This document shows, in pieces, positions 11,677-34,600 of a stretch of 64,000 nt of DNA. Below the pieces are notes generated by a model. That model saw only the letters and a program-made list of their open reading frames with translations. It was not told where the DNA came from and did no database searches. A program made the translations under genes and the position numbers. Numbering within the stretch: the first letter of the stretch is position 1; every line of letters begins with the position of its first letter. This DNA comes from an uncultured Gammaproteobacteria bacterium (lineage in GTDB: Bacteria > Patescibacteriota > Patescibacteriia > Magasanikbacterales > GWA2-37-8). Location of the stretch: NCBI GenBank assembly GCA_964511375.1, contig CAZEEW010000001.1:70512-134511 (forward strand), given 5' to 3'.

Positions 11677-11985
11677 ATAATATTGTCAAAAAAAATTATA
11701 CCATTTTTATAACTATATGTAAAGAAAAATATGAAAAATATATAAAAATGATATAAATATAATTGACAATAATCACATCTTCCACCAGAATACATAGTTC
11801 TGTGTGGGTTATCCAGACAGCACAAAGAGAGAGCAAGGTAGAGAAACAAATCGGCATACTCGATCGATCATTAAGATCGAGAAGTGCGGAAAGATAGATA
11901 AAACCCAGTGCTTAAATGCGCTGGTTTTTTGTTTTTAAAAAGTAAAAAATATGGTATAATGTTCAGGAAGAAACAACCAATCTAT

Positions 11986-14274
11986 ATGCACAATGACAAG
12001 ATAAAAAAAGTTATCAATTTTCTTTCGTTCTCATTGCTTTCTCTGGCTGTATTAGTAATGCCTTTTGTCGTGGATACCAGAGTGTTTAACGCTTTTAATA
12101 TTCCTAAACAAAATTTCTTTTTAGGAATGGTCTTGCTTTTGACTTTGTTGTTTCTCGTTAAATTTGCTCTAACCAAGACCATTTCTCTCCGGTTAACATT
12201 TTTAGATAAGATACTAGGAGTGTATGTTGTTCTTCTGTTGTTATCTGGAGCCTTTTCGGTCCAAAGACTAGATAGTTTTTGGGGCAGAAATGAGTATTTC
12301 ATTACCAACATCATTTTTCTGATCGGTTTGCTGTTGTATTACTATCTGTTTGTCAACACTGTTACAACCACAAAAAAATGGCATTTAATTTACGATGCAG
12401 TGGTCGTTTCTGGTGCCTTGGTCCAAATCCCTTATCTTTTTAAGGTCATATTTAAATGGTCTTTCTTACCCTTTCTAACTGAGGGAATGTGGAATTTGGT
12501 AGCAGAAAGTAATGCCGGGTTCGGTATTTTTGTAACTATAATCTTGGTTTTATCTTTAGGACAGTTGATCAAAAAGAAAACATCATACAATCGTAATCTT
12601 TTTTACATCATCGCTACTGTCTTAAGTTTGGCTACCTTGTCTACTATTAGCTTCTCGTTAATTTGGTGGTTGGTAGTAGCTGCAGTTGGATTGCTACTTT
12701 TACTCGGAATTAATTTTTTACAAGAAGCGAGGTTGGTAACCTTGACTGGCATGTTTCTGATTTTAGTTGCCGGCATCGCCACTTTAATTTTTGGTTCACC
12801 AAAGTTTCTGAAAGCCCCGTTGCCCCAAGAAGCGTTTTTAAGTCCGAGTGCCTCTTGGCAGGTGGCAGAAAACACAATGTTTAAGAATGTTAAAAACTTT
12901 GTGTTTGGTAGTGGACCAGGTACGTTTAGTGTGGATTTCTCTGAATTCCGTGAAGCAGGGTTTAATAACGATGCTCTGGCCTGGTCAGCTCGTTTCAGTA
13001 ATCCATTTAATACCATCTTTGCTTTTGTTGCCGAGAACGGTTTGGCTTTTTCCGCGCTATTTATAATTTTGACTCTTGTAATTTTAGGGTATGTTTCCGT
13101 TTACTGGATAAAGTTGCGAGGTGGGGCGTGGCATCAGAGCTTCGGAGAAGTGGTCGGCTACCGCACGGATTTACGGCTTGAACTTTTAGTTTCATCAATC
13201 GCCTGGGTTATGTTAACCACCACACTTTTCCTACATTTTTTCAAACCAGTTCTTTGGTTCTTGTGGTGGACACTTACGGCCTTGATTATAACTGGTTTAA
13301 GCTTTTATCGTGAAAATATTGTCCGCGAGAAGAAATGGGAAATTGAAAATCGTCCTGAGCACAGCTTGTCGTTTTCTTTCGCGGTCATAATCGTTGTTGC
13401 CCTAATAATTGTGACAAGTGTTTTTGGTGCCCGAATGTATAAAGGAGAACTGGTATATGCCGCTGCTTTACGCGAATCTAAAGTCAGTGAAGCTATCCAG
13501 CAATTAAATACCGCCATTAGGTTACGCCCGAGCACTGACGTGTATTATGCAGCGTTGGCACAGGCTTATTTATCCGAAGCAGTGGAAAAAGCCAAAGAAA
13601 AAGAACCACATCGTGAGGAAGTAGCGGCATCCCTCGGAAGTGCGGTCAATTCGGCGCGCGTCGCTACTGATCTTTCTCCGAAAATGGTTGGACTTTGGGA
13701 AAATTTAGGAACCATGTATGAGAACGCTGCTGTTATGGTGCCTGAGGCCTATACTTGGAGTCTAAAAGCCTGGACCTCAGCCAAGGTTCTAGAACCGACT
13801 AATCCAGTAATTGCCTGGCGACTTGGTCGGATTAATCTCGCTCTCGGTAATAACGAAGAGGCAGCCAAAAATTTTCAAGAAGCCATCAATTTAAAAGCTG
13901 ACCTGCTTGGTGCTTATCTGGGTTTAGCAATCGCCGAAGAGCGGTTAGAAAAAACTTCTGAAGCTTTGAAGACCTATGAAACTCTCCTGACCCTGAACCC
14001 ACAAAATCCCGAGGCCCTGTTTAATTATGGTCGAGTACTGTATAACCGCAACGCCAAAGGAGATCGAAAGGCGGCTGAACAAGCTTGGCTTTTAGCGATC
14101 AAGTTACAACCTAATTATTCTAATGCACTGTACAGTCTTGCTAATTACTATGAAACAAAAGGAGACAAGTCAATGGCTTTGAAATATTATTATGAGGTGC
14201 GCGATTTGAACCCAGATAATAAAGATATTCTGAAAAAGATTAAGTCATTAGCTCCTGCGCCTGAAAAAAAATAG
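11986..14274 (+). CDS. Polytopic membrane protein with an O-antigen-ligase-like (Wzy_C) core and C-terminal TPR repeats.
   Basis: It has at least ten transmembrane helices followed by TPR-like repeats (AYLGLAIAEERLEKTSEALKTYETLL...). The annotated start at 11908 overlaps an upstream hairpin, T-tract and -10 box, so I prefer an internal Met (11986 or 11959). Confidence 0.6.
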   Translation: MHNDKIKKVINFLSFSLLSLAVLVMPFVVDTRVFNAFNIPKQNFFLGMVLLLTLLFLVKFALTKTISLRLTFLDKILGVYVVLLLLSGAFSVQRLDSFWGRNEYFITNIIFLIGLLLYYYLFVNTVTTTKKWHLIYDAVVVSGALVQIPYLFKVIFKWSFLPFLTEGMWNLVAESNAGFGIFVTIILVLSLGQLIKKKTSYNRNLFYIIATVLSLATLSTISFSLIWWLVVAAVGLLLLLGINFLQEARLVTLTGMFLILVAGIATLIFGSPKFLKAPLPQEAFLSPSASWQVAENTMFKNVKNFVFGSGPGTFSVDFSEFREAGFNNDALAWSARFSNPFNTIFAFVAENGLAFSALFIILTLVILGYVSVYWIKLRGGAWHQSFGEVVGYRTDLRLELLVSSIAWVMLTTTLFLHFFKPVLWFLWWTLTALIITGLSFYRENIVREKKWEIENRPEHSLSFSFAVIIVVALIIVTSVFGARMYKGELVYAAALRESKVSEAIQQLNTAIRLRPSTDVYYAALAQAYLSEAVEKAKEKEPHREEVAASLGSAVNSARVATDLSPKMVGLWENLGTMYENAAVMVPEAYTWSLKAWTSAKVLEPTNPVIAWRLGRINLALGNNEEAAKNFQEAINLKADLLGAYLGLAIAEERLEKTSEALKTYETLLTLNPQNPEALFNYGRVLYNRNAKGDRKAAEQAWLLAIKLQPNYSNALYSLANYYETKGDKSMALKYYYEVRDLNPDNKDILKKIKSLAPAPEKK

Positions 14275-14275
14275 T

Positions 14276-14926
14276 ATGGTTCTAAAGAAATTTTTATTAA
14301 TATTTTTCTTAAGCACAACAACTATTTTTTGTTTTCCGGCCATTGGCAACACCACAATGACCTCGACTAATTATACAATTGAGTCAGATGTGGTTGGTTT
14401 CGGCGGTGATATTTCTAGTAGTACTGGAGATACGTATTCATTGTATGATACCGCCGGAGACAATGCTCCAGGCACTTCGACCAGCACAACTTACACTATT
14501 AATGCTGGTTTTCGGGCGATGGATGGTGGAAGTTCTATTAGTCTCACCATTGGTAACTCCTCGCTTTCTTTTGGAACTCTTTCCGCCGCCTCTGTCTCTT
14601 CAGTTTCTACAGACGTCGATGTTACTGTTACTTCAGATACTGGCTATTCTTTATCTGTTAGTAGCCAATCGGGAAGCCTTTGGACGACATTAACTGGCTC
14701 AGTTGATGCTGGGAGTCAGGAGTTCGGTGTTTTGGTAAGTGGGACTGATCAGGCGTTTGCTGGTACTGCCGCATTAAGCAATGGTTTAGTATTAGCGAGT
14801 AACAACTCGGCTATTACGAGTGAAACACGCACTACTGCTTTAAGTTTCCAGGTAGCCATGTCTAGCGCGACCGCATCAGGGTCATACACTAAAAGCATAA
14901 CTTTAACCGCCTCGGCTAATCCATAA
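14276..14926 (+). CDS. Secreted Ser/Thr-rich protein, the first gene of the surface-protein cluster.
   Basis: It has a signal peptide and low-complexity S/T-rich beta-like composition. Confidence 0.5.
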   Translation: MVLKKFLLIFFLSTTTIFCFPAIGNTTMTSTNYTIESDVVGFGGDISSSTGDTYSLYDTAGDNAPGTSTSTTYTINAGFRAMDGGSSISLTIGNSSLSFGTLSAASVSSVSTDVDVTVTSDTGYSLSVSSQSGSLWTTLTGSVDAGSQEFGVLVSGTDQAFAGTAALSNGLVLASNNSAITSETRTTALSFQVAMSSATASGSYTKSITLTASANP

Positions 14927-14928
14927 AT

Positions 14929-15795
14929 ATGAAAAGGATTGGGTTAATAATTTTATTTTGCCTTTTTTTCATACCAGCCAATACTCAGGCTGTCAGTGTG
15001 AGTCCGGTTAGAACTGTTATTACAGTTGACCCCGGAGAAAGTAATACAGTGTCGATAAAGGTGGCCAATAATACTGATGCTGAGAGGAATTATGAACTCC
15101 GCACCCTGTCTTTTTCCGAGAGCGAGCAAGGGCAAGTGATTTATGGGTATGGAGTTCAGGAAGCAGAAAAATGGCTTAAACCAAGACAAGAAAAAATTGT
15201 TTTAAAAGTCAACGAGAGTAAAACGATAGACTTTTTAGTTAAGATCCCGAGCGGTGTACCCGCCGGTTCGTACTATTTAGCTTTGGCCGCTAAAGAATTG
15301 GGAAAGGAATCAGGTAATTTAGGGGTGGGGGCAGAAGTAGCGAGTCTGCTGATCCTGCAGGTTGCCGGAGAGGTTAAAGAGGAGCTGGTTGTCAAAGAAA
15401 TTAATTCTGAACGATCTATATATTTTTCTAAGCCCTGGAAATTAGAATTAAGCTTAAAAAATTTAACCCCAGTAGAAGTACCAGTTAAGGGCCGTGTGTA
15501 TTTAAAAGATCCAATGGGTGAACTGGTTGCGGCTAAAGACCTGGCCCTCGGCCGAGATATTTTGGCTAGATCGGAGCGGAGAATTCAGACTGTACTTTGG
15601 GAAAATGCTAGTCTGGTTTTACCAGGCAAATACCGTGTTAGTATTATTATTGACTACGGAAAAACCAATGGACAAATCGCTCAAGAAGTATTTGTTTGGT
15701 ATTTTCCAATATGGTTTGTCGTTGCCGGGCCAATAGTTATAATTTTACTGGTTAGTCTTACAATTTTAAAAAAGCGAAATAAAAAGAATGCGTAA
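14929..15795 (+). CDS. Secreted protein with a C-terminal transmembrane anchor, with a DUF916/DUF3324-like architecture.
   Basis: It has an N-terminal signal peptide and a C-terminal hydrophobic helix followed by KKRNKKNA. Confidence 0.45.
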   Translation: MKRIGLIILFCLFFIPANTQAVSVSPVRTVITVDPGESNTVSIKVANNTDAERNYELRTLSFSESEQGQVIYGYGVQEAEKWLKPRQEKIVLKVNESKTIDFLVKIPSGVPAGSYYLALAAKELGKESGNLGVGAEVASLLILQVAGEVKEELVVKEINSERSIYFSKPWKLELSLKNLTPVEVPVKGRVYLKDPMGELVAAKDLALGRDILARSERRIQTVLWENASLVLPGKYRVSIIIDYGKTNGQIAQEVFVWYFPIWFVVAGPIVIILLVSLTILKKRNKKNA

Positions 15796-18700
15796 GTTTT
15801 GGTTAAAACTGTTTTTAGTTTTTTTAGTTGGGAGTGGAATTCTCACCGGCCTTTTATTTTTCGCCAGTACTTCTTTAAGCCAAAGTAGTGGCATTACTTT
15901 AGATGCTACTGTTCCGTCAACCGGTGGAGGAGGTGACCCGCCCAATCCAGGCGATACCACCCCGCCGACCATCTCGAACGTTGGGTCGAGTAGTATTTCT
16001 CAAACGGGCGCTGTTGTTACTTGGACAGCGACGGATAATACTTTGTTGACTGGTTGTTCGTTTGCTTATGGAGAAAGCTATGGCAGTTCGGTGACGCCAT
16101 CTAATAACGGCAGTAATTTTACGGCGTCATTATCTGGTTTGGTAGCCAATACATTATATAATTTTCGAATCACTTGCACTGATTCAAGTAGTAACTCAGC
16201 TCAACAAACTGGTAGTTTCCAAACTTTGCCGCTCCAAGACACCACCCCGCCGGTTATTTCTAACATTCTCGCCACACCAAGCGTGCGCAGCAGTGTTATA
16301 ACCTGGGACACCAACGAGGCGGCAGATAACCAGGTAGATTTTGGGCTAACCACTAGCTATGGGCAGAGCGTTAATGACGTTAATCTTCTTTTAAGCCATA
16401 GTCTAACTTTAAACGGACTCCTACCTGGTACATTGTATAATTACCGAGTGATTAGTGCTGACGCTAGTGGTAATCGGGCTACATCAGTGAACCAAACCTT
16501 CACTACTTTGAATGATACCGTCCCACCAGCTGAGGCGAGTAATTATACTTTAACCACGACCACCAACTCGATTGTATTAAATTGGACTAATCCTGTAGAT
16601 ACGGATTTTTCAAAAGTCATTTTAGTCCGGAAGATCGGCAGTCGCTCGAATACACCAACCGACGGCACAGTAATTTACGAGGGAGCGAATAGTACGAAAA
16701 CCGATACCAATATTCAAGTAAATGTAACTTATTTTTATACACTTTTCTCTTTTGACACCTCTAATAATCGTAGCAATGGTATTTTCTTGTCAGGCAAAAT
16801 TAACCCTCCGCAGAATGTTGAAGTGTGTACTAATGGCGTTGATGACGATGGTGACAACAAGATTGACTGTGCTGATTCAGATTGTTCACTTGCCGAGAAC
16901 TGTGTGCATCGGGATGAGATTTGTAATAACGGTGTAGATGATGATCGAGACACAAAAATTGATTGCGCTGACAGTGATTGCGCGAATAACATTGCCTGTC
17001 GTGTCCCTACTCCGGAAATATGTAATAACAGTGTAGACGACGATGAAGATGGAAAAGTCGATTGTGCAGATAATGATTGTTCTCAGTCTAGTTATTGCCA
17101 ACCAGCTGCAACAGAGATTTGTAATAATGGGCAAGACGACGACAATGACGGAATGATAGATTGTGCCGATAGTAATTGCAGCGCTTTTCCAGGTTGCGCT
17201 GAATCCCCGGGCGGAAGCAGTGCATGTAATAATGGAAGAGATGATGATGGGGATGCTAAAGTGGATTACCCGAATGATCCTGGCTGCACTTCAATAGATG
17301 ATAATGATGAATATAACCCGCCAGACGAAAATGTGCCATCGTCTTTAAGACTCGAGCTGTCTTCGTTGGAATTTTTTGCCGGTTTAAGAAATATTAGTAT
17401 ACCCTGGCGCAACAAAAGTATAGCTAGCCTTGCCAACTCCCGTGCTTACTTGCGTATTAACACTAATGCCTTCACAACTCGGCCAGAAAAAGTAACTTTT
17501 TATACGGCTTCGAATAAGTATGAATTGGCCCTAAGTAATAATTATTACTTGGTTGATTTTACTTTCCCCAAAGCCGGTGTCCATGACTCCTATTTAGAGT
17601 TAAATTACGGTGCTGGCCAAAACGATTCATTATCTTTTGTTTTAAACAGTTTGCCTGCTGGTCTTGTAACCGGTGATGAGAACAAACCTTTAGCTGGCGC
17701 ACGAGTTACAATAAGTCCGCGCGGTAGTGGAAGTTCATCAGCCGAAAATTATGGCCAAAACAGTCAATTAGTAACCGACGTCAATGGTCTTTATGGTTGG
17801 GTCATGCCGGTTGGTTTTTATGAACTAAAAATTACTAAAGAAGGATATTACGAAGAAACTAAAGTACTAAAAGTAGATAATAACATTGTTAATGAAAACA
17901 TTTCCTTAGTGTTGAAACCAAAAAAACTGGAAGATGTAATCGACCCCAAAGCTGGTTTAACTGAAAACATTTCAAACGTCGCAAAAAATATTGGTCAAAA
18001 AAGTAGTGCTACTCTTAAGAGAGGTATTAAATCGGCGGAAAATGTCGTTAAAGACATTGATCGAGCAAAAGAAAATCCGGAAGTGCAGAAGGTGACTAGA
18101 GAAGTGGTTGCTCCTGGTACGACGGCTGTAGTAGCAGTTGGTGCCGTACCGTTAATTTCTTGGGGAAGCATTTGGCCGTTGCTTCGCTTTATCTTTTTGC
18201 AGCCAACCCTTCTTTTGGGAAGAAAAAAACGTCAAGCTTGGGGCGTAGTTTACAATGCGTTAAACAAATTACCACTTGATCTGGTTATCGTGCGTCTTTT
18301 AGACGCACAAACTAAAAAAGTTTTGCAAACCAAAGTTACGGATAAACAAGGTCGCTTTATTTTTTGGGCTGAGCCAGGCGAATATCTGATTGAAGCGCAG
18401 AAAGGGTCGATGAAGTTTCCTTCCGCCCTTCTTAGTGGTTATGAACAAGATGGCCGGAAAGGAGATATTTACCATGGTGAGAAAATTGTGGTATCTCAAG
18501 AAGAGGCTAATATATCACCAAATATACCGCTTGATCCGGGCGGAGTGTTAAAAACCCCAACTCGTTTAAGGTGGGAAAAATTTGGTCGCGCCGTGCAAAA
18601 TATTTTGGCCTGGTTAGGTTTAATTGTAACAGCCGCATCACTATATATCACACTGGTGTGGTATATGTGGTTCCTCCTTGTTGTGCATGTGGTATTGTTC

Positions 18701-19036
18701 CTGCTCTTTAAACGTTTGGCAGTACCACCAAAACCAAGAAATTGGGGCATGGTTGCTGACGCCGACACCAAGTCACCGCTTCGGCAGGTAGTGGCGAGGC
18801 TCTTTAGCGCTCAATTTAACAAATTAGTAGCGACTGAAGTTACTGATCGTAGAGGTCGTTACAATTTCCTGGTCGGTGATGGGGAATATTATGTTACCTA
18901 TGATAAAGCTGAATACTTGCCACACAAAACTAATGTGATAGATACAAGCAGGGAAGAAGAAAAGATATTAGCTAAAAATATTGTTTTGAAAAAGAAAGAA
19001 AATACATTATCCACAATAGAAAAAACCAGCGAATAG
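15788..19036 (+). CDS. Giant surface protein of 1082 aa.
   Basis: Starting from a signal peptide, it carries about three FN3-like modules (TWTATDNT..., ITWDTNEAADN...). These are followed by five tandem C.NG.DDD.DG.(I/V)DC.D.DC repeats of the putative metal-binding MopE type, CarboxypepD_reg-like segments (TDVNGLYGW..FYELKITKEGYYE), and internal transmembrane helices. Confidence 0.7.
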   Translation: MRKFWLKLFLVFLVGSGILTGLLFFASTSLSQSSGITLDATVPSTGGGGDPPNPGDTTPPTISNVGSSSISQTGAVVTWTATDNTLLTGCSFAYGESYGSSVTPSNNGSNFTASLSGLVANTLYNFRITCTDSSSNSAQQTGSFQTLPLQDTTPPVISNILATPSVRSSVITWDTNEAADNQVDFGLTTSYGQSVNDVNLLLSHSLTLNGLLPGTLYNYRVISADASGNRATSVNQTFTTLNDTVPPAEASNYTLTTTTNSIVLNWTNPVDTDFSKVILVRKIGSRSNTPTDGTVIYEGANSTKTDTNIQVNVTYFYTLFSFDTSNNRSNGIFLSGKINPPQNVEVCTNGVDDDGDNKIDCADSDCSLAENCVHRDEICNNGVDDDRDTKIDCADSDCANNIACRVPTPEICNNSVDDDEDGKVDCADNDCSQSSYCQPAATEICNNGQDDDNDGMIDCADSNCSAFPGCAESPGGSSACNNGRDDDGDAKVDYPNDPGCTSIDDNDEYNPPDENVPSSLRLELSSLEFFAGLRNISIPWRNKSIASLANSRAYLRINTNAFTTRPEKVTFYTASNKYELALSNNYYLVDFTFPKAGVHDSYLELNYGAGQNDSLSFVLNSLPAGLVTGDENKPLAGARVTISPRGSGSSSAENYGQNSQLVTDVNGLYGWVMPVGFYELKITKEGYYEETKVLKVDNNIVNENISLVLKPKKLEDVIDPKAGLTENISNVAKNIGQKSSATLKRGIKSAENVVKDIDRAKENPEVQKVTREVVAPGTTAVVAVGAVPLISWGSIWPLLRFIFLQPTLLLGRKKRQAWGVVYNALNKLPLDLVIVRLLDAQTKKVLQTKVTDKQGRFIFWAEPGEYLIEAQKGSMKFPSALLSGYEQDGRKGDIYHGEKIVVSQEEANISPNIPLDPGGVLKTPTRLRWEKFGRAVQNILAWLGLIVTAASLYITLVWYMWFLLVVHVVLFLLFKRLAVPPKPRNWGMVADADTKSPLRQVVARLFSAQFNKLVATEVTDRRGRYNFLVGDGEYYVTYDKAEYLPHKTNVIDTSREEEKILAKNIVLKKKENTLSTIEKTSE

Positions 19037-19065
19037 TAGTATAATAATATAGAATAGAAGAGATT

Positions 19066-22000
19066 ATGGAAGAGTTTGCGGAAAAGTTAAAAAAACAGGG
19101 AAGAACCCTATTTTTTAGCGTACTAGGGATATTTTTTGTTATGCTAACTTTTAGCATTATTTTGCAACAAGATTCAGCTGTCGAAGCAGCGACGCCCCCT
19201 ACTATTGTTTCTTACCAAGGCAAGCTCTTGGTAGGTGGGAGTTTGGCATCGAGCACTGTTAGCATGACTTTCCGTTTATATGATGATCCAACCGCTGGGA
19301 GTGAAAAATATAATTCTGGAGCGGTAAGTGTCACTCCGCAATCCGGTTTATTTTCGGTCGAACTAGGTGGTAATGATGGTGCGGTAATTGACCCAACGAT
19401 TTTTAAGGATAATGCTGCTTTGTATTTGCAGGTTACAATTGGTGCCGAAAACCTGTCGCCTAGAAAGAGGATTACCACTGCACCTTACGCTCTAAACGCT
19501 CTTTACTTGGATGGTCGAATTGCTACAAGTACACCAACCAGCACTAGTTATGTTCCGTTGGCAGATAATTCTGGAAATTTTAATTTCAACAAAGTAACCT
19601 CCACGGAGGTATATGTGAGTGCTACGAGTTCATTTAACAATGGGACAGCCTTCTTTGTTCCATTTGATGGCACCAGTATTTTGAGCCTTGGCAATATAAC
19701 ATCAAATTCAGGGCTGCTGAGTATTTTGGGTACGACTGGAGATGCTCCCACAATTTTAATGGGAACAGGTGATGTGTACGGGGATGAATTTAATGTTTCA
19801 ATCGGTGGAGGAAATAGTCCAAGTATTGCTTTAAACTATAATTCGGTCTCGAATAATGGTTTGGAAATCGGGGCTAATGCCAGCGGCGGCTACATTGAGA
19901 GTACCCCAAGTAGTACAACTCTGAAGTTTGTTTCCAATATTGCTGCAGGGCTAGATTCATACTCTGCCTTTGAATTCAGAACAAATAATACCTTGACGGG
20001 CGGTGTAAACAAATATTTAGCCGCCTGGTACAATAATACGACAAACGTTATGGTTTTAAGTCCAGAGGGTACCCTGCTTGTTAACGCCCTTGGTGTTGCG
20101 GGTGTAGGCATTGAAACCACTGCGCTTACATCTTTCGGTACTGTCTCAGTCGGGACTGATCTTACAATAGGTGGTATAAATTATACACCCTACTTTATTG
20201 ATTCAGTTGGTACAAATGGTTATTTGTGGAAGTCAGACGGTGATGGACGTGGAACTTGGGTTTCAACTTCGAGCCTTGGTATAATAGGCGACCTTCCTCC
20301 TGGATCGACTGGCCAAGTTTTTCGTTATGGCTCTTCCTCGTGGGAAGCAACTAGTAGTTTGTTTATCGCTGATTCAGGTTTTGTTGGTATAGGAACCACA
20401 ACACCTAATTTAAAATTGACCATCGCAAATGATGGTGGTATGCAAGCAATGGGAACCTATGGTAGTGGTACGCTTCTTGCGACCAGTACAGGTTCGCAAT
20501 TTATTTGGTATCCAAGAAAGAGTTCTTTAATGGCTGGTCACATGGAAAGTTCGTACGAATATTGGTCAGATGGAATGGTGGGTAGTTACACTGCTTCGTT
20601 CGGAAGAGATAACCGTACCGGTGCTGATTATGCTTTCGCAGCAGGCAGCGGCAACAACGCTAACGGAACAGCTGCGGTTGCCATTGGATACGGTAATCAG
20701 GCAAGCGCAGAGTATAGTTCTGCCTTTGGGTCAGGGAATTTAAGCTTAGGTAATTATGGTGCAACTATAGGCCGCAGTAATCGAACTGATGGTGAATATT
20801 CCATTGCTATGGGATACACTGTGCGTGCTAGTTCAACCAGCGCTTTTGCCTGGGGATACAACTATACATTAACGACAGACTACTCACTTTCTATCGGTCG
20901 TGACGATGCAGATTTTATCTTTACGCCAGGAGAAAGCACAGCAACAAATACTGTAGCATTTTCTACTGTCACTCAATTTAATAACAACGTCGCAAGTACT
21001 ACTGGTGCCCTTGCATATATTTTGAATGCACCGAATTTTGCTTCTACGAGTCCCGATCAATACATTTTGTCCTTGCGCTCCAATAACACCCCGGTCTTTT
21101 CAGTAGCTTCCAACGGCAATGTTCATGCCTTAGGTACGTTAAGTGCATCGAGCGCAACGGTTGGTACTCCAGGAACACCCGGTGACTTGGCCGAGCGCGT
21201 GGATATTGCCATAGATGATACAGCTGAAGCTGGAGACGTATTAACTGTAGATGAAATCAGTCCAGATACTTATCGTCGCACGTCTGGCTCCTATGATGCT
21301 TCCGTTTCTGGTGTTGTGTCCACAAACCCGACGATTGTTGTTGGTAATGGTAAAACAGATTACACGGCGGTAATGGCCATGGTTGGTCGTGTACCCGTTA
21401 AAGCAAGTGCTGAAAACGGGCCAATTAATCGAGGTGATTTATTAGTTAGTGCTTCCTTACCCGGTCATGCTATGCGCTATGACCCGACCAAGGATGATAC
21501 CCGTGTAGTCGGTGTGATTGGTGTGGCTCTTGATTCGCTACCTTCCGGCAGTGGTAAAATTATGGCCCTGATCCGCACGGGCTGGGTGTATAACCGCAAT
21601 CAAAGCATCCAAGAGATTAAATCTAATTTAGAAACTTTAGCTGCGGTACAAGGCTTGAGCTTGGGTAGTAACCCGAACAATTTAGAAGTGCAGAATACTG
21701 GAGGTGCTTTAAATTACACTAGTGGAAACCTAAATCTTCAAGGGTTTGCCATTTTAAATGTGGGTCGAGTTATAGGAGTAAATGGTCGGTGGATTATTGA
21801 TGGTAATGGTCGATTAATTTCTAAAGTACAAACTTCTGAAGGTGAAAAAACTCTGTATTCTGTAAATTCATATAGCGATGAATTAATTATCTCAGGTAGT
21901 GATAAATTAACTTCCGGTGAGGCGCGAATTAATTTTGACCAAGCAACCAGAGAGATAATAAATAGTGACGAAACTTTGAAAGTAAATGTTACTTTAACTT

Positions 22001-22479
22001 CCGGTGAGGCCACGGGTATATACGTAAAAGAAAAAAATGAGCAGGGCTTTGTGGTAAAAGAAACTGGTGCTGGACAGAGTAATGCCACTTTTGATTGGGT
22101 AGTAATTGCTAAGCGTAAGCCAGTACCAACTCCCGAACCTCCAGCTGAAGTGACTAACCCGCCTCCGTCTAGCGGTAATAACACAGAAACGCCAGCGAGT
22201 TCGAATGAAAGTTCTGGTGGTAACCAAGTCAACCCACCTACCACTGATCAAGGTGCTGGTGAGACTAGTGAAGCCCCACCAAGTACTGATGCCAACGCAA
22301 GTCCAGACACAAACGACAATACTTCAGACACTGCTAGCCCTACTACAGAAACAAGTTCAACTCCGCCGCCAGCGGACCCTGTTGAAACTACCCCAGCACT
22401 AACCCAAACCACAGAAGCGCCTGTCGAGACAGGTGAAACTACTCCAGGCAATGGAGGAGAAGCATTAGCCAGCCCTTGA
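19066..22479 (+). CDS. Giant adhesin-like protein of 1137 aa.
   Basis: It has an N-terminal transmembrane segment and S/T/G-rich beta-like repeats. It carries Hep_Hag-like heptad repeats (AAGSGNNANGTAAVAIGYGNQASAEYSSAFGSGN...). The C-terminus is a low-complexity Pro/Thr-rich tail. Confidence 0.7.
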   Translation: MEEFAEKLKKQGRTLFFSVLGIFFVMLTFSIILQQDSAVEAATPPTIVSYQGKLLVGGSLASSTVSMTFRLYDDPTAGSEKYNSGAVSVTPQSGLFSVELGGNDGAVIDPTIFKDNAALYLQVTIGAENLSPRKRITTAPYALNALYLDGRIATSTPTSTSYVPLADNSGNFNFNKVTSTEVYVSATSSFNNGTAFFVPFDGTSILSLGNITSNSGLLSILGTTGDAPTILMGTGDVYGDEFNVSIGGGNSPSIALNYNSVSNNGLEIGANASGGYIESTPSSTTLKFVSNIAAGLDSYSAFEFRTNNTLTGGVNKYLAAWYNNTTNVMVLSPEGTLLVNALGVAGVGIETTALTSFGTVSVGTDLTIGGINYTPYFIDSVGTNGYLWKSDGDGRGTWVSTSSLGIIGDLPPGSTGQVFRYGSSSWEATSSLFIADSGFVGIGTTTPNLKLTIANDGGMQAMGTYGSGTLLATSTGSQFIWYPRKSSLMAGHMESSYEYWSDGMVGSYTASFGRDNRTGADYAFAAGSGNNANGTAAVAIGYGNQASAEYSSAFGSGNLSLGNYGATIGRSNRTDGEYSIAMGYTVRASSTSAFAWGYNYTLTTDYSLSIGRDDADFIFTPGESTATNTVAFSTVTQFNNNVASTTGALAYILNAPNFASTSPDQYILSLRSNNTPVFSVASNGNVHALGTLSASSATVGTPGTPGDLAERVDIAIDDTAEAGDVLTVDEISPDTYRRTSGSYDASVSGVVSTNPTIVVGNGKTDYTAVMAMVGRVPVKASAENGPINRGDLLVSASLPGHAMRYDPTKDDTRVVGVIGVALDSLPSGSGKIMALIRTGWVYNRNQSIQEIKSNLETLAAVQGLSLGSNPNNLEVQNTGGALNYTSGNLNLQGFAILNVGRVIGVNGRWIIDGNGRLISKVQTSEGEKTLYSVNSYSDELIISGSDKLTSGEARINFDQATREIINSDETLKVNVTLTSGEATGIYVKEKNEQGFVVKETGAGQSNATFDWVVIAKRKPVPTPEPPAEVTNPPPSSGNNTETPASSNESSGGNQVNPPTTDQGAGETSEAPPSTDANASPDTNDNTSDTASPTTETSSTPPPADPVETTPALTQTTEAPVETGETTPGNGGEALASP

Positions 22480-22516: not shown

Positions 22517-22590
22517 GGGCCCTTAGCGTAGCTGGCTAGCGCGCTTCCATGGCATGGAAGAGGTCACGAGTTCGAATCTCGTAGGGTCCA
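22517..22590 (+). tRNA. tRNA-Ala (anticodon GGC).
   Basis: The acceptor stem is GGGCCCT/AGGGTCC with a G3:U70 pair. The anticodon loop is ATGGCAT and the T-arm is ACGAG-TTCGAAT-CTCGT. Confidence 0.8.
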
Positions 22591-22597
22591 CAAAAAT

Positions 22598-22619
22598 CCG
22601 GCACTTTGCCGGTTTTTTT
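22598..22619 (+). terminator. Rho-independent terminator after tRNA-Ala.
   Basis: The hairpin is CCGGC-acttt-GCCGG, followed by TTTTTTT. Confidence 0.75.
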
Positions 22620-22658
22620 CTGGACTTTTTTTAAAATTAGTCGTAGAATACTGGCACT

Positions 22659-26352: not shown

Positions 26353-26895
26353 TTAAAGACTGGGCCAGCCCTGGATTTTAATTTTAAACTCAAATGGTAT
26401 ATTCTCTTTTTGCAGCAGACGAGAAATTGGGGAGGAGACATTTTCTAACCAGCTAATTTCTTTAAGCTTGTCTTGGTAATCCAACAAAGCTTGACGGGTG
26501 GTGGCTGTCCCACTTAAGGACAAAGTAGAATCAGAACGGTTAACAGCAAGACTGTTTAGGGTAATATTCTGGGGCAAGTTACTGGACAGAACTAATAATT
26601 CTGGCACAATTCTTTTAAAACCTTTTCCAGCCTCATTGAATCTTTCTAGTTTACGATTTGTCTCTCTTACCTCTTGGTTATGTGCTGTAAATTCTTGGTT
26701 AACAACGATTGCGCTTTCCGACAAAGAATTAAAATCCTCTTGAAGTGTTAGCCAGCTCCAAACTAAACTAATTCCTAAGACAGCGGCAGTAATGAGCACA
26801 ATCTCCAGCATGTTTTTGACAAAGATAAAGCGCACCAGGTGTTCTAACTTAGCTTTTTTTGGGGGAGGTAATAGATTAACGGCTTGTCGAAACAT
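26353..26895 (-). CDS. pilN: Type IV pilus assembly protein PilN-like.
   Basis: The N-terminus carries the conserved NLLP motif (AVNLLPPPKK) followed by a transmembrane helix. Confidence 0.6.
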   Translation of the reverse strand: MFRQAVNLLPPPKKAKLEHLVRFIFVKNMLEIVLITAAVLGISLVWSWLTLQEDFNSLSESAIVVNQEFTAHNQEVRETNRKLERFNEAGKGFKRIVPELLVLSSNLPQNITLNSLAVNRSDSTLSLSGTATTRQALLDYQDKLKEISWLENVSSPISRLLQKENIPFEFKIKIQGWPSL

Positions 26896-26896
26896 A

Positions 26897-27985
26897 TTAT
26901 TCTTTACTCAAGAAAGGATTTTGTGCTGCTCGTAGCGCCAAACCAACTACCGAAGCCAAGGAAGAATCAGTGGTGTGGTTAGCAAATTCATCCGAAAATT
27001 TAAGTGTGGGCAGGAATGGTAAAATGCTTGTTTTTACCTTTAATTTTCTACCAATCGTCTCTGGCAAATTTTTTAAAGAAGCTGAACCACCACACAGGTT
27101 AACTTCTTTTATTGGATCAGTTTCAGAAAAGTGTTCTTGGTAAAAATTAACTGCCCGGCTAACCTCGGTAATTAAATTGTCAGTTAATTTTGTGACTACC
27201 TTAAGATATTTCGGATCTAGTTTAGAGTAAGTAACCCCTCGCTCAATTTTTAAATCCTCGGCTTTTTCGTAGTCAATCTTCATTTCTTGTGCAATTGCGG
27301 TTGTAAGTAATTCACCTGAGAAGTTCAGATGAGTACTAAACTTAACGCCCTCATGATCAAAAAAGATAAGGTTAGAGCGGGTGGCGCCTAAGTCTAAAAT
27401 CGCGCTCGCTTTTTGCTCGACTTGGTTATCTGGCAACAGGGCGCGGGCGATAGACAAAACCTCGATTTCTAAAGCCAGAGGGGTTAGCCCAACACTTTCT
27501 AAGAGATAAGTATATGAGTCGGCAATAATTTTAGGTACAGCACCTACCAATACTCGCGAATGGTTGTTGTTGCTGCCTCCTAACACCTTCCAATCAATAT
27601 AAGTTTCTTCGGCTTCAAATGGTAAATGCTTTTTCGCCTGGTACAAAACATCTTCTTCAGTTACCTGATCTGGGCTAGCTTCCAACGGAATGATTTTTAA
27701 AAAAGTTTTTGGTTCTGGCAGGTCAGCTACTACCCAGGGAGATTTGATTGCTTTATAACGTCCTTCCCGTCCTAGAAGGTAGAGAATTTTTTTCCGAACC
27801 ATTTCTGGCTGTTGGATCTCTCCGTTCACTATACAACCTGGGGAGAGAGGGGCGGTGCGTAGTTCTTTAACGTAATAATAATCATGGCCCCGTAAGGATT
27901 TACGTCGTTCTAATTGCATTAATTTTATTGACAGGTCACCAATGTTTAAGCCAAAGGCGCCGCAAAAAGGATTTTGCAAAAACAT
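26897..27985 (-). CDS. pilM: Type IV pilus assembly protein PilM (actin-like ATPase fold).
   Basis: It has the PilM_2-like N-terminus (FGLNIGDLSIKLMQLER) and is 362 aa long. Confidence 0.75.
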   Translation of the reverse strand: MFLQNPFCGAFGLNIGDLSIKLMQLERRKSLRGHDYYYVKELRTAPLSPGCIVNGEIQQPEMVRKKILYLLGREGRYKAIKSPWVVADLPEPKTFLKIIPLEASPDQVTEEDVLYQAKKHLPFEAEETYIDWKVLGGSNNNHSRVLVGAVPKIIADSYTYLLESVGLTPLALEIEVLSIARALLPDNQVEQKASAILDLGATRSNLIFFDHEGVKFSTHLNFSGELLTTAIAQEMKIDYEKAEDLKIERGVTYSKLDPKYLKVVTKLTDNLITEVSRAVNFYQEHFSETDPIKEVNLCGGSASLKNLPETIGRKLKVKTSILPFLPTLKFSDEFANHTTDSSLASVVGLALRAAQNPFLSKE

Positions 27986-27987
27986 AA

Positions 27988-29136
27988 CTAGAAACTCTGA
28001 GCTAAAGAGTACATCGGCATGATAACTGCCACCGCTATGCCAGCAACTGCCAAGCCAAGTATTAAAATAATAACTGGCTCAATAATTGTAGAAAAGTTTT
28101 TCATCGTGTTATCTACTTCATTTGAATAGTAATCAGACAATTCTTTCAACATATGTTCTACCTCACCGGACTGTTCTCCAACCATGATCATTTCCGTTAC
28201 CATTGGTGGAAACGCTTTTGGGAAGGTTGCTAAGATTTCTGACAAAGCCTCACCTTTTTTAAGTTTTTCCGAAACTTCTAACAAGTTGTTTTTGTAAACT
28301 AAATTACTTTGTACTTCTGAAGTGATGCGGACAGCATCAATAATTGGAATGGAGCTCTGCATTAGAGAAGAAAGAGTCAAAGTAAAACGAGCTAAGTTAA
28401 TTTTTTTAATGATTGGTCCGGCTAAAGGTAGGTGCAAGTTCAAAACATGCAATTTTTTTCTTAAGCTTGGCACTTTAAATAACTGAATTAGGCCAATAAT
28501 TAAAGCTACCAAGCCAATTCCAATAAAGATGCCATACTTTTGTGTGCCCTCGGTAATCGCAATTAGGATTCTTGTTGGTAAAGGCAATTCCGCATCAAAG
28601 TCATTAAACATGACCATAACTTTTGGTAAAACAAATACCACTACTTCGATCGCAATCCCTACCATGGCCACCAACACTACTGCCGGGTAAACCATGGCGC
28701 CCCGCACCCGGCTTGTAAGTTCGTGGCTTTTTTTCATTTGAGTATGGATTTGGTCTAAAGCCTCCTCCATTTTGCCGGCGGCCTCACCCGCAGCGACCAT
28801 ACTTACGTAGATAGGCGGGAAGACTTTTGGGTACAAGGCCAAGACTTCGCTTAACTGCTTGCCTTTTTCAACCCCTTCTTTAATCTCACCAATTATTTTT
28901 TTAAGTCTTTTATTCTCGATTTCTTGCCCTAAGACTTGTAAAGCGTTCACAATCGGCAAACCAGCCTTAATCATGGTCTTAAGGTGGTAAATGAACAGCA
29001 TTTTGTGCACCAAAGGAATCCGAGTCAAATGATCAGTGACCCAGGCATTTAGCTTGGATTCAAAAGAAGATAGTTGCTTTTCACTCCCTTTGTCAGTTAC
29101 TTCTTCCAAGTTGGGTGCTTTGCGTGTCGCAAACAT
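27988..29136 (-). CDS. pilC: Type IV pilus platform protein PilC (GspF family).
   Basis: It has two T2SSF repeats and three transmembrane segments. Confidence 0.85.
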   Translation of the reverse strand: MFATRKAPNLEEVTDKGSEKQLSSFESKLNAWVTDHLTRIPLVHKMLFIYHLKTMIKAGLPIVNALQVLGQEIENKRLKKIIGEIKEGVEKGKQLSEVLALYPKVFPPIYVSMVAAGEAAGKMEEALDQIHTQMKKSHELTSRVRGAMVYPAVVLVAMVGIAIEVVVFVLPKVMVMFNDFDAELPLPTRILIAITEGTQKYGIFIGIGLVALIIGLIQLFKVPSLRKKLHVLNLHLPLAGPIIKKINLARFTLTLSSLMQSSIPIIDAVRITSEVQSNLVYKNNLLEVSEKLKKGEALSEILATFPKAFPPMVTEMIMVGEQSGEVEHMLKELSDYYSNEVDNTMKNFSTIIEPVIILILGLAVAGIAVAVIMPMYSLAQSF

Positions 29137-29138
29137 AA

Positions 29139-30860
29139 CTATTCTTTAGTTACACGTAGTATTTCACTAATTGTGGTAATGCCAATTTTGGCTTTAATCA
29201 AGCCATCTTCTAACATTGTCAACATGCCGTGTTCGCGGGCATAATTTTTAATTTCCTCAGCGGTGCCACGATTGTTAATGATTTGGGTTAGTTTATCGTC
29301 GATTTCCAAAACTTCGTAAATACCTTGTCGTCCCTTATACCCAGTGTCGCCGCATCTTCGGCAGCCCGTGCCTTGGTAAAAAATCATACTGGCCAGGTTT
29401 TTTTCTTTTATCTTAATATCTCCGTATTTTGTAAATAGTTCTCCCATCTTTTTAACATCGAATATCTTCAAGAGGTCAGCAATCGCGGCTTTATCTAACT
29501 TGTATTCTTTTTTACAGTGTGGACAGATTTTTCTGACTAAACGTTGAGCAATAATAATGTTAGCGGTAAAGGCGACCAAGAAAGGCGGAACACCCATGTC
29601 TGTTAGGCGAGGTAGGGCGGTCGGTGCGTCATTTGTATGCAGTGTCGACAATACCAAGTGTCCAGTCATGGCCGAATGAATAGCGATCTCAGCAGTTTCT
29701 TCATCGCGGATTTCTCCGACCATGATAACATTCGGGTCCTGACGTAATAAGGAGCGCAAGCCTGAAGCAAAGGTAAATCCTACTTTGGGATTAATTTGGC
29801 TTTGGTTTACCCCAGCAACGCGGTACTCGATCGGGTCTTCGATGGTTGAAATGTTTACACCCGGTTGGTTTAAAATACCAAGAACAGAATACAAGGTTGT
29901 GGTTTTACCAGAACCAGTCGGACCGGTAACCAAGATCATGCCGTGCGGTTTCTTAATAGCGGATTCAACAATTTCTTTAATTTTTGGTAAAAACCCAAGC
30001 TGATCCAAAGTTAATGGTTTTGTTCCTTCATGTAGCAGGCGCATAACAATCTTTTCACCATCATATACTGGTAGAATAGACACACGAAAAGCCAACTTCT
30101 CATCCTGCACTTGTATTTTAAAGCGCCCGTCCTGTGGCACCATGTGCTCATCTAGCTTTAGATTAGCCAAAATCTTGATTCTTGCAATAATACCATTTTG
30201 AATCGCTTTTGGTAGGGTCATGACAGGTTTTAAGACGCCATCAATGCGGTAACGAATAGTCACCTCTTTTTCGCCAGGCTCCATGTGAATATCTGAAGCA
30301 TTTTCGTAAACTGCGTGCTCTAAAATACTATTCACGATATTTACTACTGGCAATTCTTCCGCTGCCTTTTTTAGGTCCTTGGCGTTTATCGTCCCAGTTG
30401 GGTCAGTAACAATTTTCAAATCATCTTCCAGCTCCGCATGATAACGGCGTAGAGCATCTTTGAGATCAGACGGTGTGGTAATAAACACGTTCGGTTCTAA
30501 TCCAGTTTTACGACGCAGGAATTCGATTGTTTGAATATCGGTCGGATCAGTCATGGCCAGTTTTAGTTCAGTCGCGTCTTTGTCAAAAGCAACAACCTGG
30601 TGAGTGCCAGCCAGAGGACCAGGAATAAGATTCAAAATTTCTTTTTTAATTTCTTTTCCTTTTAAACCAATAAATGGGAAATCCAAATACTTTCCAGCCT
30701 TTTCATAAAGCTCTTCTTCAGAAATTTCTCCTTCTGCAACCAGGGCGTCTTCCAACTCCTTATTTTGTTTTTCAGCTTTAGTAGATACCGAGCGTAAAGC
30801 CGAAGTAGAAATAAGTTTATACTTTTTAATAACTTCTTTTAGTGTGTCTGTAGGTAACAT
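29139..30860 (-). CDS. pilB: Type IV pilus assembly ATPase PilB (GspE family).
   Basis: It has Walker A (GPTGSGKTTT), the Asp/His boxes and a tetracysteine motif (CPHC...CRRC). Confidence 0.9.
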   Translation of the reverse strand: MLPTDTLKEVIKKYKLISTSALRSVSTKAEKQNKELEDALVAEGEISEEELYEKAGKYLDFPFIGLKGKEIKKEILNLIPGPLAGTHQVVAFDKDATELKLAMTDPTDIQTIEFLRRKTGLEPNVFITTPSDLKDALRRYHAELEDDLKIVTDPTGTINAKDLKKAAEELPVVNIVNSILEHAVYENASDIHMEPGEKEVTIRYRIDGVLKPVMTLPKAIQNGIIARIKILANLKLDEHMVPQDGRFKIQVQDEKLAFRVSILPVYDGEKIVMRLLHEGTKPLTLDQLGFLPKIKEIVESAIKKPHGMILVTGPTGSGKTTTLYSVLGILNQPGVNISTIEDPIEYRVAGVNQSQINPKVGFTFASGLRSLLRQDPNVIMVGEIRDEETAEIAIHSAMTGHLVLSTLHTNDAPTALPRLTDMGVPPFLVAFTANIIIAQRLVRKICPHCKKEYKLDKAAIADLLKIFDVKKMGELFTKYGDIKIKEKNLASMIFYQGTGCRRCGDTGYKGRQGIYEVLEIDDKLTQIINNRGTAEEIKNYAREHGMLTMLEDGLIKAKIGITTISEILRVTKE

Positions 30861-32539: not shown

Positions 32540-32822
32540 ATGCGCTAGAATAACAGCTTTTTAATTATTTGTCAAATACATATTTACAATCTCATGCCTG
32601 GACTATTGCTAGGTATCCAAAAGTCTGCTATTATAAACGATCATCTTCAAAAAAAGAAGATGTTCAAATAATATTTACAAGCTCCTTAAAATTCGCAAAA
32701 AAGGCAAATTCAATCTGGCGAACCAACATTTTCTTTTAATTTTAGAAAAAAATGCTGGCTCGCCAGAAGGTCGTTCCTCACGGTGGGGGATGACTGGAAG
32801 GTAAGTTGGAAAGGAAAAAGAG

Positions 32823-33986: not shown

Positions 33987-34187
33987 TCGCCTCGCCGGCT
34001 GTCCTTCGGGGCGGTCGGTGGGCATGGTTTAGAGGTGGGGCGTTTCTCTTAGGGGAGACGCTTGCGCCTCCCCTATCCCAGTATTTCTTAATTCAAGGAA
34101 TGTTGAGATAGGAGGCTCGTAGACCGACGTGTTTTCGTTGGGCGCTCGGTTGAGCGCACGGCGAAACACCAAACAGAGGGAGGACAA

Positions 34188-34547
34188 ATGGTCCACAAGG
34201 ATCTCAGAATCGAGCTGGTGCTCGGCGGCGTCACTTTTATCATCGTTGGCTTCCTCGAGGCAGGCGAGGAAGTGATCACCGGTGATGAAATGAAGCGTCG
34301 GCTGGCGGCCCGCTCCTTGCGGCTCATCCACGGGGCGGATTTCGAGCACTTCTCTCGCTACCGCGAGGATTTGCCGAAAGAACTCCGACCTCACCTACTG
34401 GCCACAGACCAGTGTGCTCCAGAGTGCCAGAAAGAGACGACCGTCTTCGAGTTCTTCGAAGATGTGGAAGTGTGGCACTCGTTCTGGCACAACCTTTGCG
34501 GCCCGACATGGGGCCACAACGTCTTGGCGGTGTGCTGTTGTGTGTAG
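34188..34547 (+). CDS. GC-rich hypothetical protein of 119 aa (island B, gene 2).
   Basis: The SD is GAGGGAGG, 5 nt before the ATG. It has GC3 bias. It is followed by a 14-bp GC hairpin. Confidence 0.45.
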   Translation: MVHKDLRIELVLGGVTFIIVGFLEAGEEVITGDEMKRRLAARSLRLIHGADFEHFSRYREDLPKELRPHLLATDQCAPECQKETTVFEFFEDVEVWHSFWHNLCGPTWGHNVLAVCCCV

Positions 34548-34555
34548 GAGGGAGC

Positions 34556-34600
34556 GGTGCCGGCGGGGGACCCCCCGCCGGCACCCGTAGTCCCTTTTAA
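34556..34600 (+). terminator. Strong GC hairpin terminator closing island B.
   Basis: The stem is GGTGCCGGCGGGGG-a-CCCCCGCCGGCACC (14 bp), followed by a T-rich tract. Confidence 0.6.

Follow-up and report, generated by a model that had tools for sequence, protein, structure and literature searches.

Candidate-phyla-radiation (CPR) bacteria are thought to live attached to other microbes, and to our knowledge the machinery used for this attachment is almost unknown outside the Saccharibacteria. Here, we describe a five-gene locus (g0 to g4) located in a stretch of 64,000 nucleotides that was analyzed as a whole and is referred to as the window (assembly GCA_964511375.1, contig CAZEEW010000001.1, positions 70,512 to 134,511); as the initial annotation of the sequence had supposed, the source organism belongs to the CPR (Patescibacteria). 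It appears to encode a pared-down and so far undescribed relative of the Pam pilus, which was reported in 2026 in the Saccharibacterium Ca. Mycosynbacter amalyticus (Saccharimonadia) (Troman et al., bioRxiv 10.64898/2026.03.03.709456). In this system, the pilins PamA, PamB and PamE consist of two domains and are joined by donor-strand exchange, PamT is a single-domain tip pilin of low abundance in M. amalyticus that is modeled without a donor strand, and PamC and PamD are PapD/FimC-like chaperones with an unusual C-terminal transmembrane (TM) helix (bioRxiv 10.64898/2026.03.03.709456). The same preprint describes PamR, a 32.8-kDa tether comprising an N-terminal strand, a pair of FnIII domains and a TM helix at the C-terminus, which its authors predicted to be the strand-donating terminal subunit, as well as a sugar-like modification carried by PamA, plus a 'tail fibre-like protein' that co-localizes with pam operons (bioRxiv 10.64898/2026.03.03.709456). 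Pam homologs were placed mainly in Saccharimonadia and Microgenomatia, and the preprint mentions neither WxL/DUF916 nor Magasanikbacteria or ABY1 (bioRxiv 10.64898/2026.03.03.709456). A second point of reference are the WxL (Csc) clusters of Firmicutes, whose WxLIP proteins combine DUF916 (PGBD), DUF3324 (HBD) and a TM helix (PMC10599100).

We consider it probable that the five genes form a reduced, lineage-specific surface-fiber operon of the Pam type, which has a chaperone and no usher. All of them lie on the + strand, as do the features of the locus described below: g0 (11908-14274, 788 amino acids (aa)), g1 (14276-14926, 216 aa), g2 (14929-15795, 288 aa), g3 (15788-19036, 1082 aa) and g4 (19066-22479, 1137 aa). 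The initial annotation had placed the four co-directional open reading frames (ORFs) g1 to g4 exactly, while the unit itself has to be extended to five genes, as g0 abuts g1 and is conserved upstream of it. It had also missed the pair of a pilin-like and a chaperone-like protein, g1-g2, to which the giant proteins g3 and g4 would be accessory tether and fiber components. Its proposal of a cell-surface adhesion apparatus is reasonable with regard to the surface apparatus, since the genes form a conserved, most likely co-transcribed module; the products are all exported or membrane proteins, neither ordinary enzymes nor cytoplasmic proteins. Filament formation and adhesion, including adhesion to a host, are functions that we infer for them.

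The link to the Pam pilus is carried by g1. Its product contains 35% Ser and Thr and begins with a hydrophobic N-terminal signal according to hydropathy, in agreement with its earlier description as a Ser/Thr-rich secreted protein. Among 18,950 NCBIfam models, g1 matched one family, CPR_pilus_PamT (NF058579; E=2e-11, 43.7 bits, cut-off 240), and all 21 aligned members of the g1 family match PamT as their only or best family, with a best E-value of 1e-17. A further model, CPR_Pam_pilin_C (NF058581), was matched by seven of the 21 members, in each case below the NCBIfam cut-off. Because all of these scores are far below the naming cut-offs of NCBI, the g1-family proteins are regarded as relatives and not as equivalogs of the Pam pilins, and g1 itself is probably a divergent single-domain pilin of the PamT type. 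A profile search with the g1 family recovered 136 relatives, and every one that carries a name from its source is called 'hypothetical protein'.

The structure of g1 was modeled with AlphaFold2 (AF2) from an alignment of 21 sequences. The model shows a beta-sandwich, pilin-like domain at aa 83-216 (14522..14923) with a predicted local distance difference test (pLDDT) score >90, which closes with a conserved strand ending in ...YTKSITLTASANP. In a Foldseek search against the PDB, the nearest named folds of the model were FimA, PapA, FimG, PapE and CfaB together with archaeal donor-strand filaments, at a probability of 0.9-0.99; a profile of the g1 family gave no match against PDB sequences. In front of this domain lies the conserved mature N-terminal segment at aa 28-82 (14357..14521), which begins with MTSTNYTIESDVVGFGG. 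Nowhere is the protein more conserved than in these first 18 mature residues (0.72 vs 0.56 for the folded domain), and the signal-peptide cleavage site is located directly before the invariant M(T/S)S.NY. The region of about aa 25-82 is unfolded in the AF2 monomer model (pLDDT <50). The N-terminus of g1 is thus conserved yet unfolded in the monomer, as expected of a segment that folds only against a partner.

The next gene, g2, had been described as encoding a secreted, DUF916-like protein with a C-terminal TM anchor, and all three parts of this description were borne out: the AF2 model (pLDDT 95) comprises a signal, beta-sandwiches at aa 22-145 and 153-258 and a TM helix at aa 261-287, and the protein matches Pfam WxLIP_PGBD (formerly DUF916) with 28.0 bits, just over the gathering score of 27.3. 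The same Pfam family was matched by 36 of 59 members of the g2 family, and the second domain of g2 gave no Pfam match to DUF3324. Using Foldseek against the PDB, the top match of the model was WxLIP of E. faecium (9i25_C, 3.7e-13), followed by CfaA, CsuC, DraB, EcpB, PapD, Caf1M, FimC and SafB at 1e-10 to 1e-8, with g2 matching whole two-domain chaperones rather than single Ig domains. The only relative among PDB sequences that was found with the g2-family profile was EfmWxLIP1 (E=5e-7). Going by its model, g2 is a membrane-anchored, two-Ig-domain chaperone-like protein of the PapD/WxLIP fold type. The family to which it belongs is large: it counts 15,517 cluster representatives at E<=1e-3, of which 1,602 remain at E<=1e-30, and its members are mostly about 290 aa long. 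Four members (P0027, P0028, P0029 and P0036) reach 640-800 aa and contain two or three tandem chaperone-like modules.

Domain 1 of g2 is closed by a long beta-hairpin at aa 113-145 (15265..15363, …AEVASLLILQVAG), formed by strands at aa 113-124 and 136-145 with a loop of lower confidence between them. It contains the sequence ...VASLLILQVAG, and residues L140, V145 and G147 are conserved. This hairpin is placed as the F1-G1 hairpin of PapD-type chaperones and as the hairpin by which WxLIP is predicted to insert into WxL (PMC10599100), and by analogy it may provide a G1-like donor strand. An interaction between g1 and g2 would be in line with the pairing of their genes and with what has been published on PamC/D and WxLIP.

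The similarity of g2 to WxLIP also allows a different explanation, in which the locus encodes a surface complex of the WxL/Csc type and no pilus, with a wall-binding g2 that docks g1, g3 and g4 non-covalently, without polymerization or strand exchange. Both the nearest solved fold and the only PDB sequence relative of g2 are the E. faecium WxLIP, the Pfam family matched by g2 is WxLIP_PGBD, and the window contains a single pilin-like gene. In WxL clusters, too, a single TM-anchored WxLIP is combined with secreted partners of small and large size (PMC10599100). However, the Pfam scan of the cluster revealed no WxL domain, WxL motifs are also missing from g1, g3 and g4, DUF3324 was not matched, and the models matched by g1 are those of Pam pilins and not of WxL. 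In addition, related loci carry two to four pilin paralogs per chaperone, which is the pattern of a pilus operon. Consequently, we regard a WxL/Csc-type complex as unlikely. WxLIP itself is expected, by prediction, to place a hairpin strand in WxL, so that polymerization is the main point on which the two readings diverge.

To find related loci, a g1 alignment of nine sequences was scanned against one genome per GTDB species, and neighboring ORFs were labeled with hidden Markov models built from the alignments of this analysis. The scan yielded 80 loci, all of them from CPR bacteria (Magasanikbacteria, Uhrbacteria, Falkowbacteria, Woykebacteria, WWE3, Parcubacteria and unclassified Patescibacteria). 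Many of the corresponding records of metagenome-assembled genomes are titled 'uncultured Gammaproteobacteria bacterium' and one 'Candidatus Udaeobacter sp.', which are probably wrong taxonomy labels. A g2 homolog follows g1 in 80/82 loci, within 300 nt in 73 of them. The next gene after g2 is of the g3 type in 53 of the 67 loci with room for it, and in 12/67 it is a giant with the N-terminal module of g4 (g4N-type) and no g3; overall, 37 loci have a g4N-type gene downstream of g2. Immediately upstream of g1, g0 is present in 38 of 72 loci with room. Two loci contain single-ORF fusions of g2 and g3 (L035, 3046-7029; L046, 615-3089), in which both hydrophobic segments are kept at the junction.

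This conservation bears on the possibility that the genes encode independent adhesins that are merely adjacent, with a pilin and chaperone likeness that reflects generic Ig-fold similarity. Ig-like sandwiches are indeed common, the E-values of the g1 fold matches are weak, and g4 is absent from some loci, e.g. L003. Against this stand the g1-g2 pair, which is kept over several CPR classes, the g2-g3 fusions and the overlapping or abutting genes, as well as the match of g2 to full two-domain chaperones and of g1 to one family in the entire NCBIfam set. We therefore consider a chance neighborhood of adhesins very improbable.

Nine loci contain at least two pilin genes (on the + strand) together with one chaperone gene. 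In these multi-pilin loci, the g1-type N-terminus is retained by the first gene, which also has a match to PamT, in L072 over the full model. The second gene encodes 340-367 aa and has a full-length match to Pam_pilin_C at its C-terminus, behind an N-terminal domain of ~200 aa, and thus shows the two-domain architecture of PamA/B/E. Such two-domain, Pam-type shaft pilins are present in relatives from Uhrbacteria, Falkowbacteria, Woykebacteria and WWE3, and the pilin-like proteins of the related loci end in G.Y(S/T)(Q/H).(I/V).(Y/L).(T).(A/G).(F/P), positioned exactly at the C-terminus. In the window and in most loci of the Magasanikbacteria type, only the PamT-like gene is kept; a two-domain shaft pilin either was lost there or never existed.

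As g1 is the only pilin gene of the cluster, it might also be the major subunit of a thin homopolymeric pilus, in which the mature N-terminus serves as donor strand for the next g1 and g3 only terminates and anchors the fiber. This sub-variant of the Pam-type reading would suit the N-terminus of g1, whose first 18 mature residues are the most conserved and unfolded in the monomer model, with the signal cleavage site directly before the invariant motif. However, g1 is probably orthologous to PamT, which was modeled by the Pam authors as a tip without donor strand and is of low abundance in M. amalyticus. Furthermore, the N-terminal motif of g1 occurs only in the first gene of the multi-pilin loci, and the presumed shaft pilins differ from it. 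A g1 homopolymer hence appears improbable to us.

In the Pam-type reading, the role of PamR would fall to g3, for which we suggest the function of a giant membrane-anchored stalk or tether. Its candidate N-terminal donor strand is located at aa 33-43 (SGITLDATVPS, 15884..15916) and is followed by a Gly/Pro linker. The mature N-terminus reads SSGITLDATVPSTGGGGD in the window and DVNVTLTVPSSGGGGGG, AIDITITMPSSAGG and NFTIDFTVPIGGGGG in orthologs, and a motif x(I/V)x(V/L)x(A/F/L)(T/S)VP followed by poly-Gly is kept at this position among the g3 orthologs. A g3-like element also opens the two-domain shaft pilins (SGVSVTVTPT in L005, GGVSVTVSTP in L078), and in another group of loci both the shaft pilin and g3 open with DTMSRxK...NHxIxFT. 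That g3 and the shaft pilins open alike would fit a terminal subunit inserting into the acceptor site that the pilins use, and it agrees with the prediction of the Pam authors for PamR. An LPXTG/sortase pilus was considered and rejected: a C-terminal LPXTG is missing, and the sole match in g3 is an N-terminal 'VPSTG' within the strand/linker, which is no sorting signal.

The N-terminal strand is followed by three FN3-type modules at aa 56-340 (15953..16807), which are visible in the sequence and supported by Pfam fn3 and Pur_ac_phosph_N, as the initial annotation had proposed. Next come acidic double-disulfide repeats at aa 347-500 (16826..17287). Previously counted as five MopE repeats, they consist, judged by their Cys positions, of four complete four-Cys units and one degenerate unit; the MopE label is not supported by Pfam, whose Cu-binding_MopE family gave no match at E<=0.1, and the repeats match NCBIfam acid_disulf_rpt (NF033662) with 110 bits in 4 stretches. 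The ectodomain further contains a CarboxypepD_reg beta-sandwich at aa 625-699 (17660..17884; Pfam PF13620, 63.8 bits), and two weaker domains of this type were found at ~826-870 and 995-1041, so that the predicted CarboxypepD_reg domains and internal membrane passes (hydrophobic segments at ~773-808 and 936-974 by hydropathy) were both recovered. The combination of domains had been called unusual; it recurs in >50 genomes of the lineage, though it is undescribed.

An alignment of 46 orthologs showed that the membrane module at aa 773-1082 (18104..19033; hydropathy, Pfam SdrD_B, bMG3 and DUF1416) is the best-conserved part of g3, more so than the ectodomain. The module is an internal duplication of a unit made of one or more hydrophobic passes, a K/R-rich junction and a beta-sandwich with WG.VY(N/D)...TD..GRY, and its near-invariant motifs are LFLQPLLLLGRRKR, DIYHGE, NIPLDP and TD..GRY. 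Given the K/R-rich junctions, the positive-inside rule suggests that both C-terminal sandwiches are cytoplasmic. For domains of the CarboxypepD_reg type, a cytoplasmic location of this part (aa 773-1082) would be unusual.

Based on these elements, we propose the following mechanism. All products would be exported by Sec or inserted into the membrane, as indicated by their signal and TM segments. The Ig-like C-terminal domain of exported g1 would be held by g2 through strand complementation, while the C-terminal helix of g2 resides in the cytoplasmic membrane. The strand of g2 would then be replaced by the N-terminal beta-strand of a partner, for which the mature N-terminal strand of g3 with its Gly linker is the best candidate. 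We consider this insertion of the g3 strand into g1 possible, with at most an even chance. The outcome would be a g1-capped fiber that is tethered to the membrane by a modular g3 stalk of ~750 aa and its conserved membrane module, with g4 as the likely target-binding element and g0 as a putative glycosylating factor of g1 or of the g4 tail. Since the window, unlike its relatives, has no two-domain pilin of the PamA/B type, the shaft might either be absent, with g3 as the stalk, or be made of g1. Going one step further, CPR bacteria of the Magasanikbacteria type could have replaced the polymeric Pam shaft by one giant polypeptide, resulting in a 'one-subunit pilus' in which the strand of g3 completes the g1 cap delivered by g2; we propose this step with considerable doubt.

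Several observations weigh against a Pam-type fiber. The PamT match of g1 is far under the NCBI cut-off (43.7 vs 240 bits), and the aligned stretch consists in part of the signal peptide and of Ser/Thr-rich sequence, so that the score may be inflated by composition. In the NCBIfam scan, g1 itself gave no match to Pam_pilin_C, and the Pam models matched neither g2, g3 nor the g2 family. The matches of g1 to known pilin folds are weak, with E-values of about 1e-2 and TM-scores of 0.35-0.5. WxLIP, the nearest solved fold to g2, is described as a surface docking protein and not as a pilus chaperone. Moreover, neither the cluster nor the 10 scanned unannotated ORFs of the window contain a second, two-domain pilin (PamA/PamB), the window has no ATP synthase neighborhood, and no filament has been observed in the lineage.

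The putative fiber protein g4 has an N-terminal TM/signal segment at aa 15-33. Its conserved N-terminal module spans aa 42-500 (19189..20565) and starts with A.PP(S/T)I(I/V)(T/S)YQGKLL; a mature N-terminus A.PPSIITYQGKLL followed by ~450 conserved aa is common to g4-type proteins, and the module was found in proteins of 900 to >2300 aa across 38 related loci. It is followed by YadA-head-like repeats at aa 508-650 (20587..21015), predicted before as Hep_Hag adhesin heptads. This prediction is supported by the match of aa 518-589 to the CbpF head among PDB sequences (E=1.3e-5), where other trimeric autotransporter heads were also matched, whereas Pfam YadA_head (formerly Hep_Hag, PF05658) scored 19.4 bits and thus stays under the gathering score of 25. 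Toward the C-terminus, aa 691-1010 (21136..22095) are taken up by conserved modules of unknown fold; they recur in the C-terminal parts of several other giant proteins of related loci, and their profile found no relative among PDB sequences. The protein ends in a Pro/Thr/Ser-rich acidic tail, delimited by composition (aa 1011-1137, 22096..22476), and with 36% Pro+Thr in the final 132 aa the Pro/Thr tail of the initial annotation was confirmed.

Across loci, g4-type proteins thus have conserved ends and a variable middle, a pattern that would suit a fiber whose attachment parts are fixed and whose binding part can change. By analogy, g4 may be the counterpart of the 'tail fibre-like protein' found beside pam operons. 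With the heads of trimeric autotransporters (YadA, UspA1, CbpF) it shares the short head-type repeats. In contrast to these proteins, it has an N-terminal TM/signal segment, N- and C-terminal modules of unknown fold and no C-terminal beta-barrel anchor; a YadA-type membrane anchor was not matched by Pfam in g4, and the C-terminus is the Pro/Thr-rich tail.

At the other end of the operon, g0 is a polytopic protein with about 12 hydrophobic segments and C-terminal TPR repeats, as seen by hydropathy and family scans. Pfam Wzy_C was matched by four of 23 g0 orthologs, among them L072 with 37.6 bits (above the gathering score) and L021 with E=1e-3 over the full model. The window's g0 itself gave no match to Wzy_C, and a profile of its membrane domain gave none against PDB sequences. 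Judged by the sequences of its orthologs, g0 would belong to the O-antigen-ligase (Wzy_C) family, as a divergent member, and might act in glycosylation or assembly. It is tempting to speculate that it glycosylates the Ser/Thr-rich g1 or the Pro/Thr tail of g4, a role that is plausible because PamA carries a sugar-like modification.

The arrangement of the genes suggests joint expression. The gaps are 1 nt between g0 and g1, 2 nt between g1 and g2 and 29 nt between g3 and g4, and the stop of g2 and the start of g3 overlap by 8 nt (15788-15795), an overlap that had already been noted. A consensus scan placed a promoter-like site, TTGACA-17-CAGAAT, upstream of g0 (11763..11791); between this site and g4 it gave no better site on the + strand, with weak internal matches only. 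Directly after g4 follow a tRNA-Ala(GGC) gene (22517..22591, +) and a terminator-like hairpin with a T-run (22598..22620, +), which is the likely end of the transcription unit. Because of the tight spacing, the promoter-like site before g0 and the tRNA gene and terminator-like hairpin after g4, the genes g0 to g4 most likely form a single transcription unit (11908-22479).

The cluster is flanked by housekeeping genes, with PolA, HolA and RmuC upstream and YchF and type IV pilus genes downstream. In L003, a near-complete relative, the same flanking genes are found in the same order. With the same housekeeping flanks in L003 and the window, the locus is a stable chromosomal one and neither a mobile nor a phage element; its base composition equals that of the rest of the window. 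This bears on the idea of a prophage or a phage-derived tail-fiber module, which could be suggested by the fiber-like g4 and by a giant neighbor in the related locus L005 with a faint Peptidase_G2 match. In the PHROG search, however, g1, g2 and g4 stayed without a match, and g3 yielded nothing beyond a weak tape-measure match (E=0.0058). A fold search with g1 in BFVD was unconvincing, with one unnamed match (E=4e-4), and the GC content corresponds to that of the genome. A phage origin is thus extremely improbable, and these searches together with the housekeeping flanks led us to rule it out.

A distance of 3.4 kb separates the cluster from the downstream type IV pilus genes, which are on the - strand (26353-30860) and comprise PilB (29139-30860), PilC (27988-29136), PilM (26897-27985) and PilN (26353-26895), a neighborhood that is kept in L003; two different filament systems are therefore found side by side. 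Upstream of the cluster, the window contains a GGDEF diguanylate cyclase (3657-4751, -) and a 700-aa SdiA-regulated/phytase-like protein (5169-7271, -). A further observation concerns an island of ~1.8 kb at 32800-34600 with 56-69% GC, compared to ~41% for the genome. It contains long ORFs that overlap on both strands (32823-33986, +, 387 aa; 32778-33758, -, 326 aa) and gave no match in Pfam, NCBIfam and Rfam. Possible readings are foreign DNA, a chimera of the assembly, or a gene for an unknown RNA or protein.

Taken together, the locus shares features with three described systems. With chaperone-usher pili it has in common the chaperone fold of g2, the pilin-like fold of g1 and the expected donor-strand complementation and exchange. 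It differs by the missing outer membrane, the membrane anchor of its chaperone and the lack of detectable sequence similarity, and no usher family was found in any scan of the cluster or its neighbors; as there is no usher, it is not a chaperone-usher system. The WxL (Csc) clusters are closest to g2 in structure and sequence (PDB 9i25, 9i1y); their WxLIP proteins appear to have the same three-part architecture as g2, and they combine, like the locus, one TM-anchored Ig-pair protein with small and large secreted partners. Unlike in these clusters, WxL-domain proteins and an LPXTG protein are missing from the locus, DUF3324 was not matched, and the partner protein is pilin-like and of the Pam type. 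Since WxL proteins are absent, the cluster is not a WxL cluster.

The Pam system and the locus are both restricted to CPR bacteria, lack an usher and have a fiber-like giant protein nearby; NCBIfam matches below the cut-off suggest a small PamT-like pilin for the locus as well. Compared by description, g2 resembles PamC and PamD in its PapD/FimC-like fold and C-terminal TM helix, and g3 resembles PamR in its N-terminal strand, FN3 modules and TM anchor. In Table S1 of the preprint (10.64898/2026.03.03.709456), 'pamC' is listed as QHN42421.1, a protein of 119 kDa numbered beside pilM (QHN42422.1); this entry is at odds with a ~35-kDa chaperone encoded in the pam operon, might be an error in the table or a large protein adjacent to type IV pilus genes, and was not used. 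Unlike the Pam system, the locus has one chaperone instead of two, no PamA/B/E shaft pilins and no ATP synthase genes nearby, and it carries the Wzy_C-like/TPR gene g0 upstream. With about 119 kDa, g3 is 3.5 times the size of PamR (32.8 kDa) and contains acidic disulfide repeats, CarboxypepD_reg domains and a multi-pass membrane module. The lineage that carries the locus is Magasanikbacteria-like (ABY1), and the matches of the g1 family stay below the NCBIfam cut-offs. Its membership in the Pam group is therefore partial: the major pilins are absent and the pilin is related to those of Pam but far below the cut-off, while the architectures of chaperone and tether are present.

This locus points to a wider spread of the Pam-type system, which, reduced and re-engineered, would reach Magasanikbacteria, Uhrbacteria and related groups, where current annotation pipelines leave such loci unlabeled. 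It would further connect the Pam chaperones with WxLIP proteins from Gram-positive gut bacteria and with the g2 family and its >15,000 clusters. The pairs of g1 with g2 and of g1 with the N-terminus of g3 are testable and could reveal how bacteria without an outer membrane build strand-exchanged fibers without an usher. Should the 'one-subunit pilus' prove true, the g2 family, the WxLIP of Firmicutes, PamC/D and the Gram-negative PapD would represent branches of a single ancient set of tools by which single-membrane bacteria complement strands without an usher.

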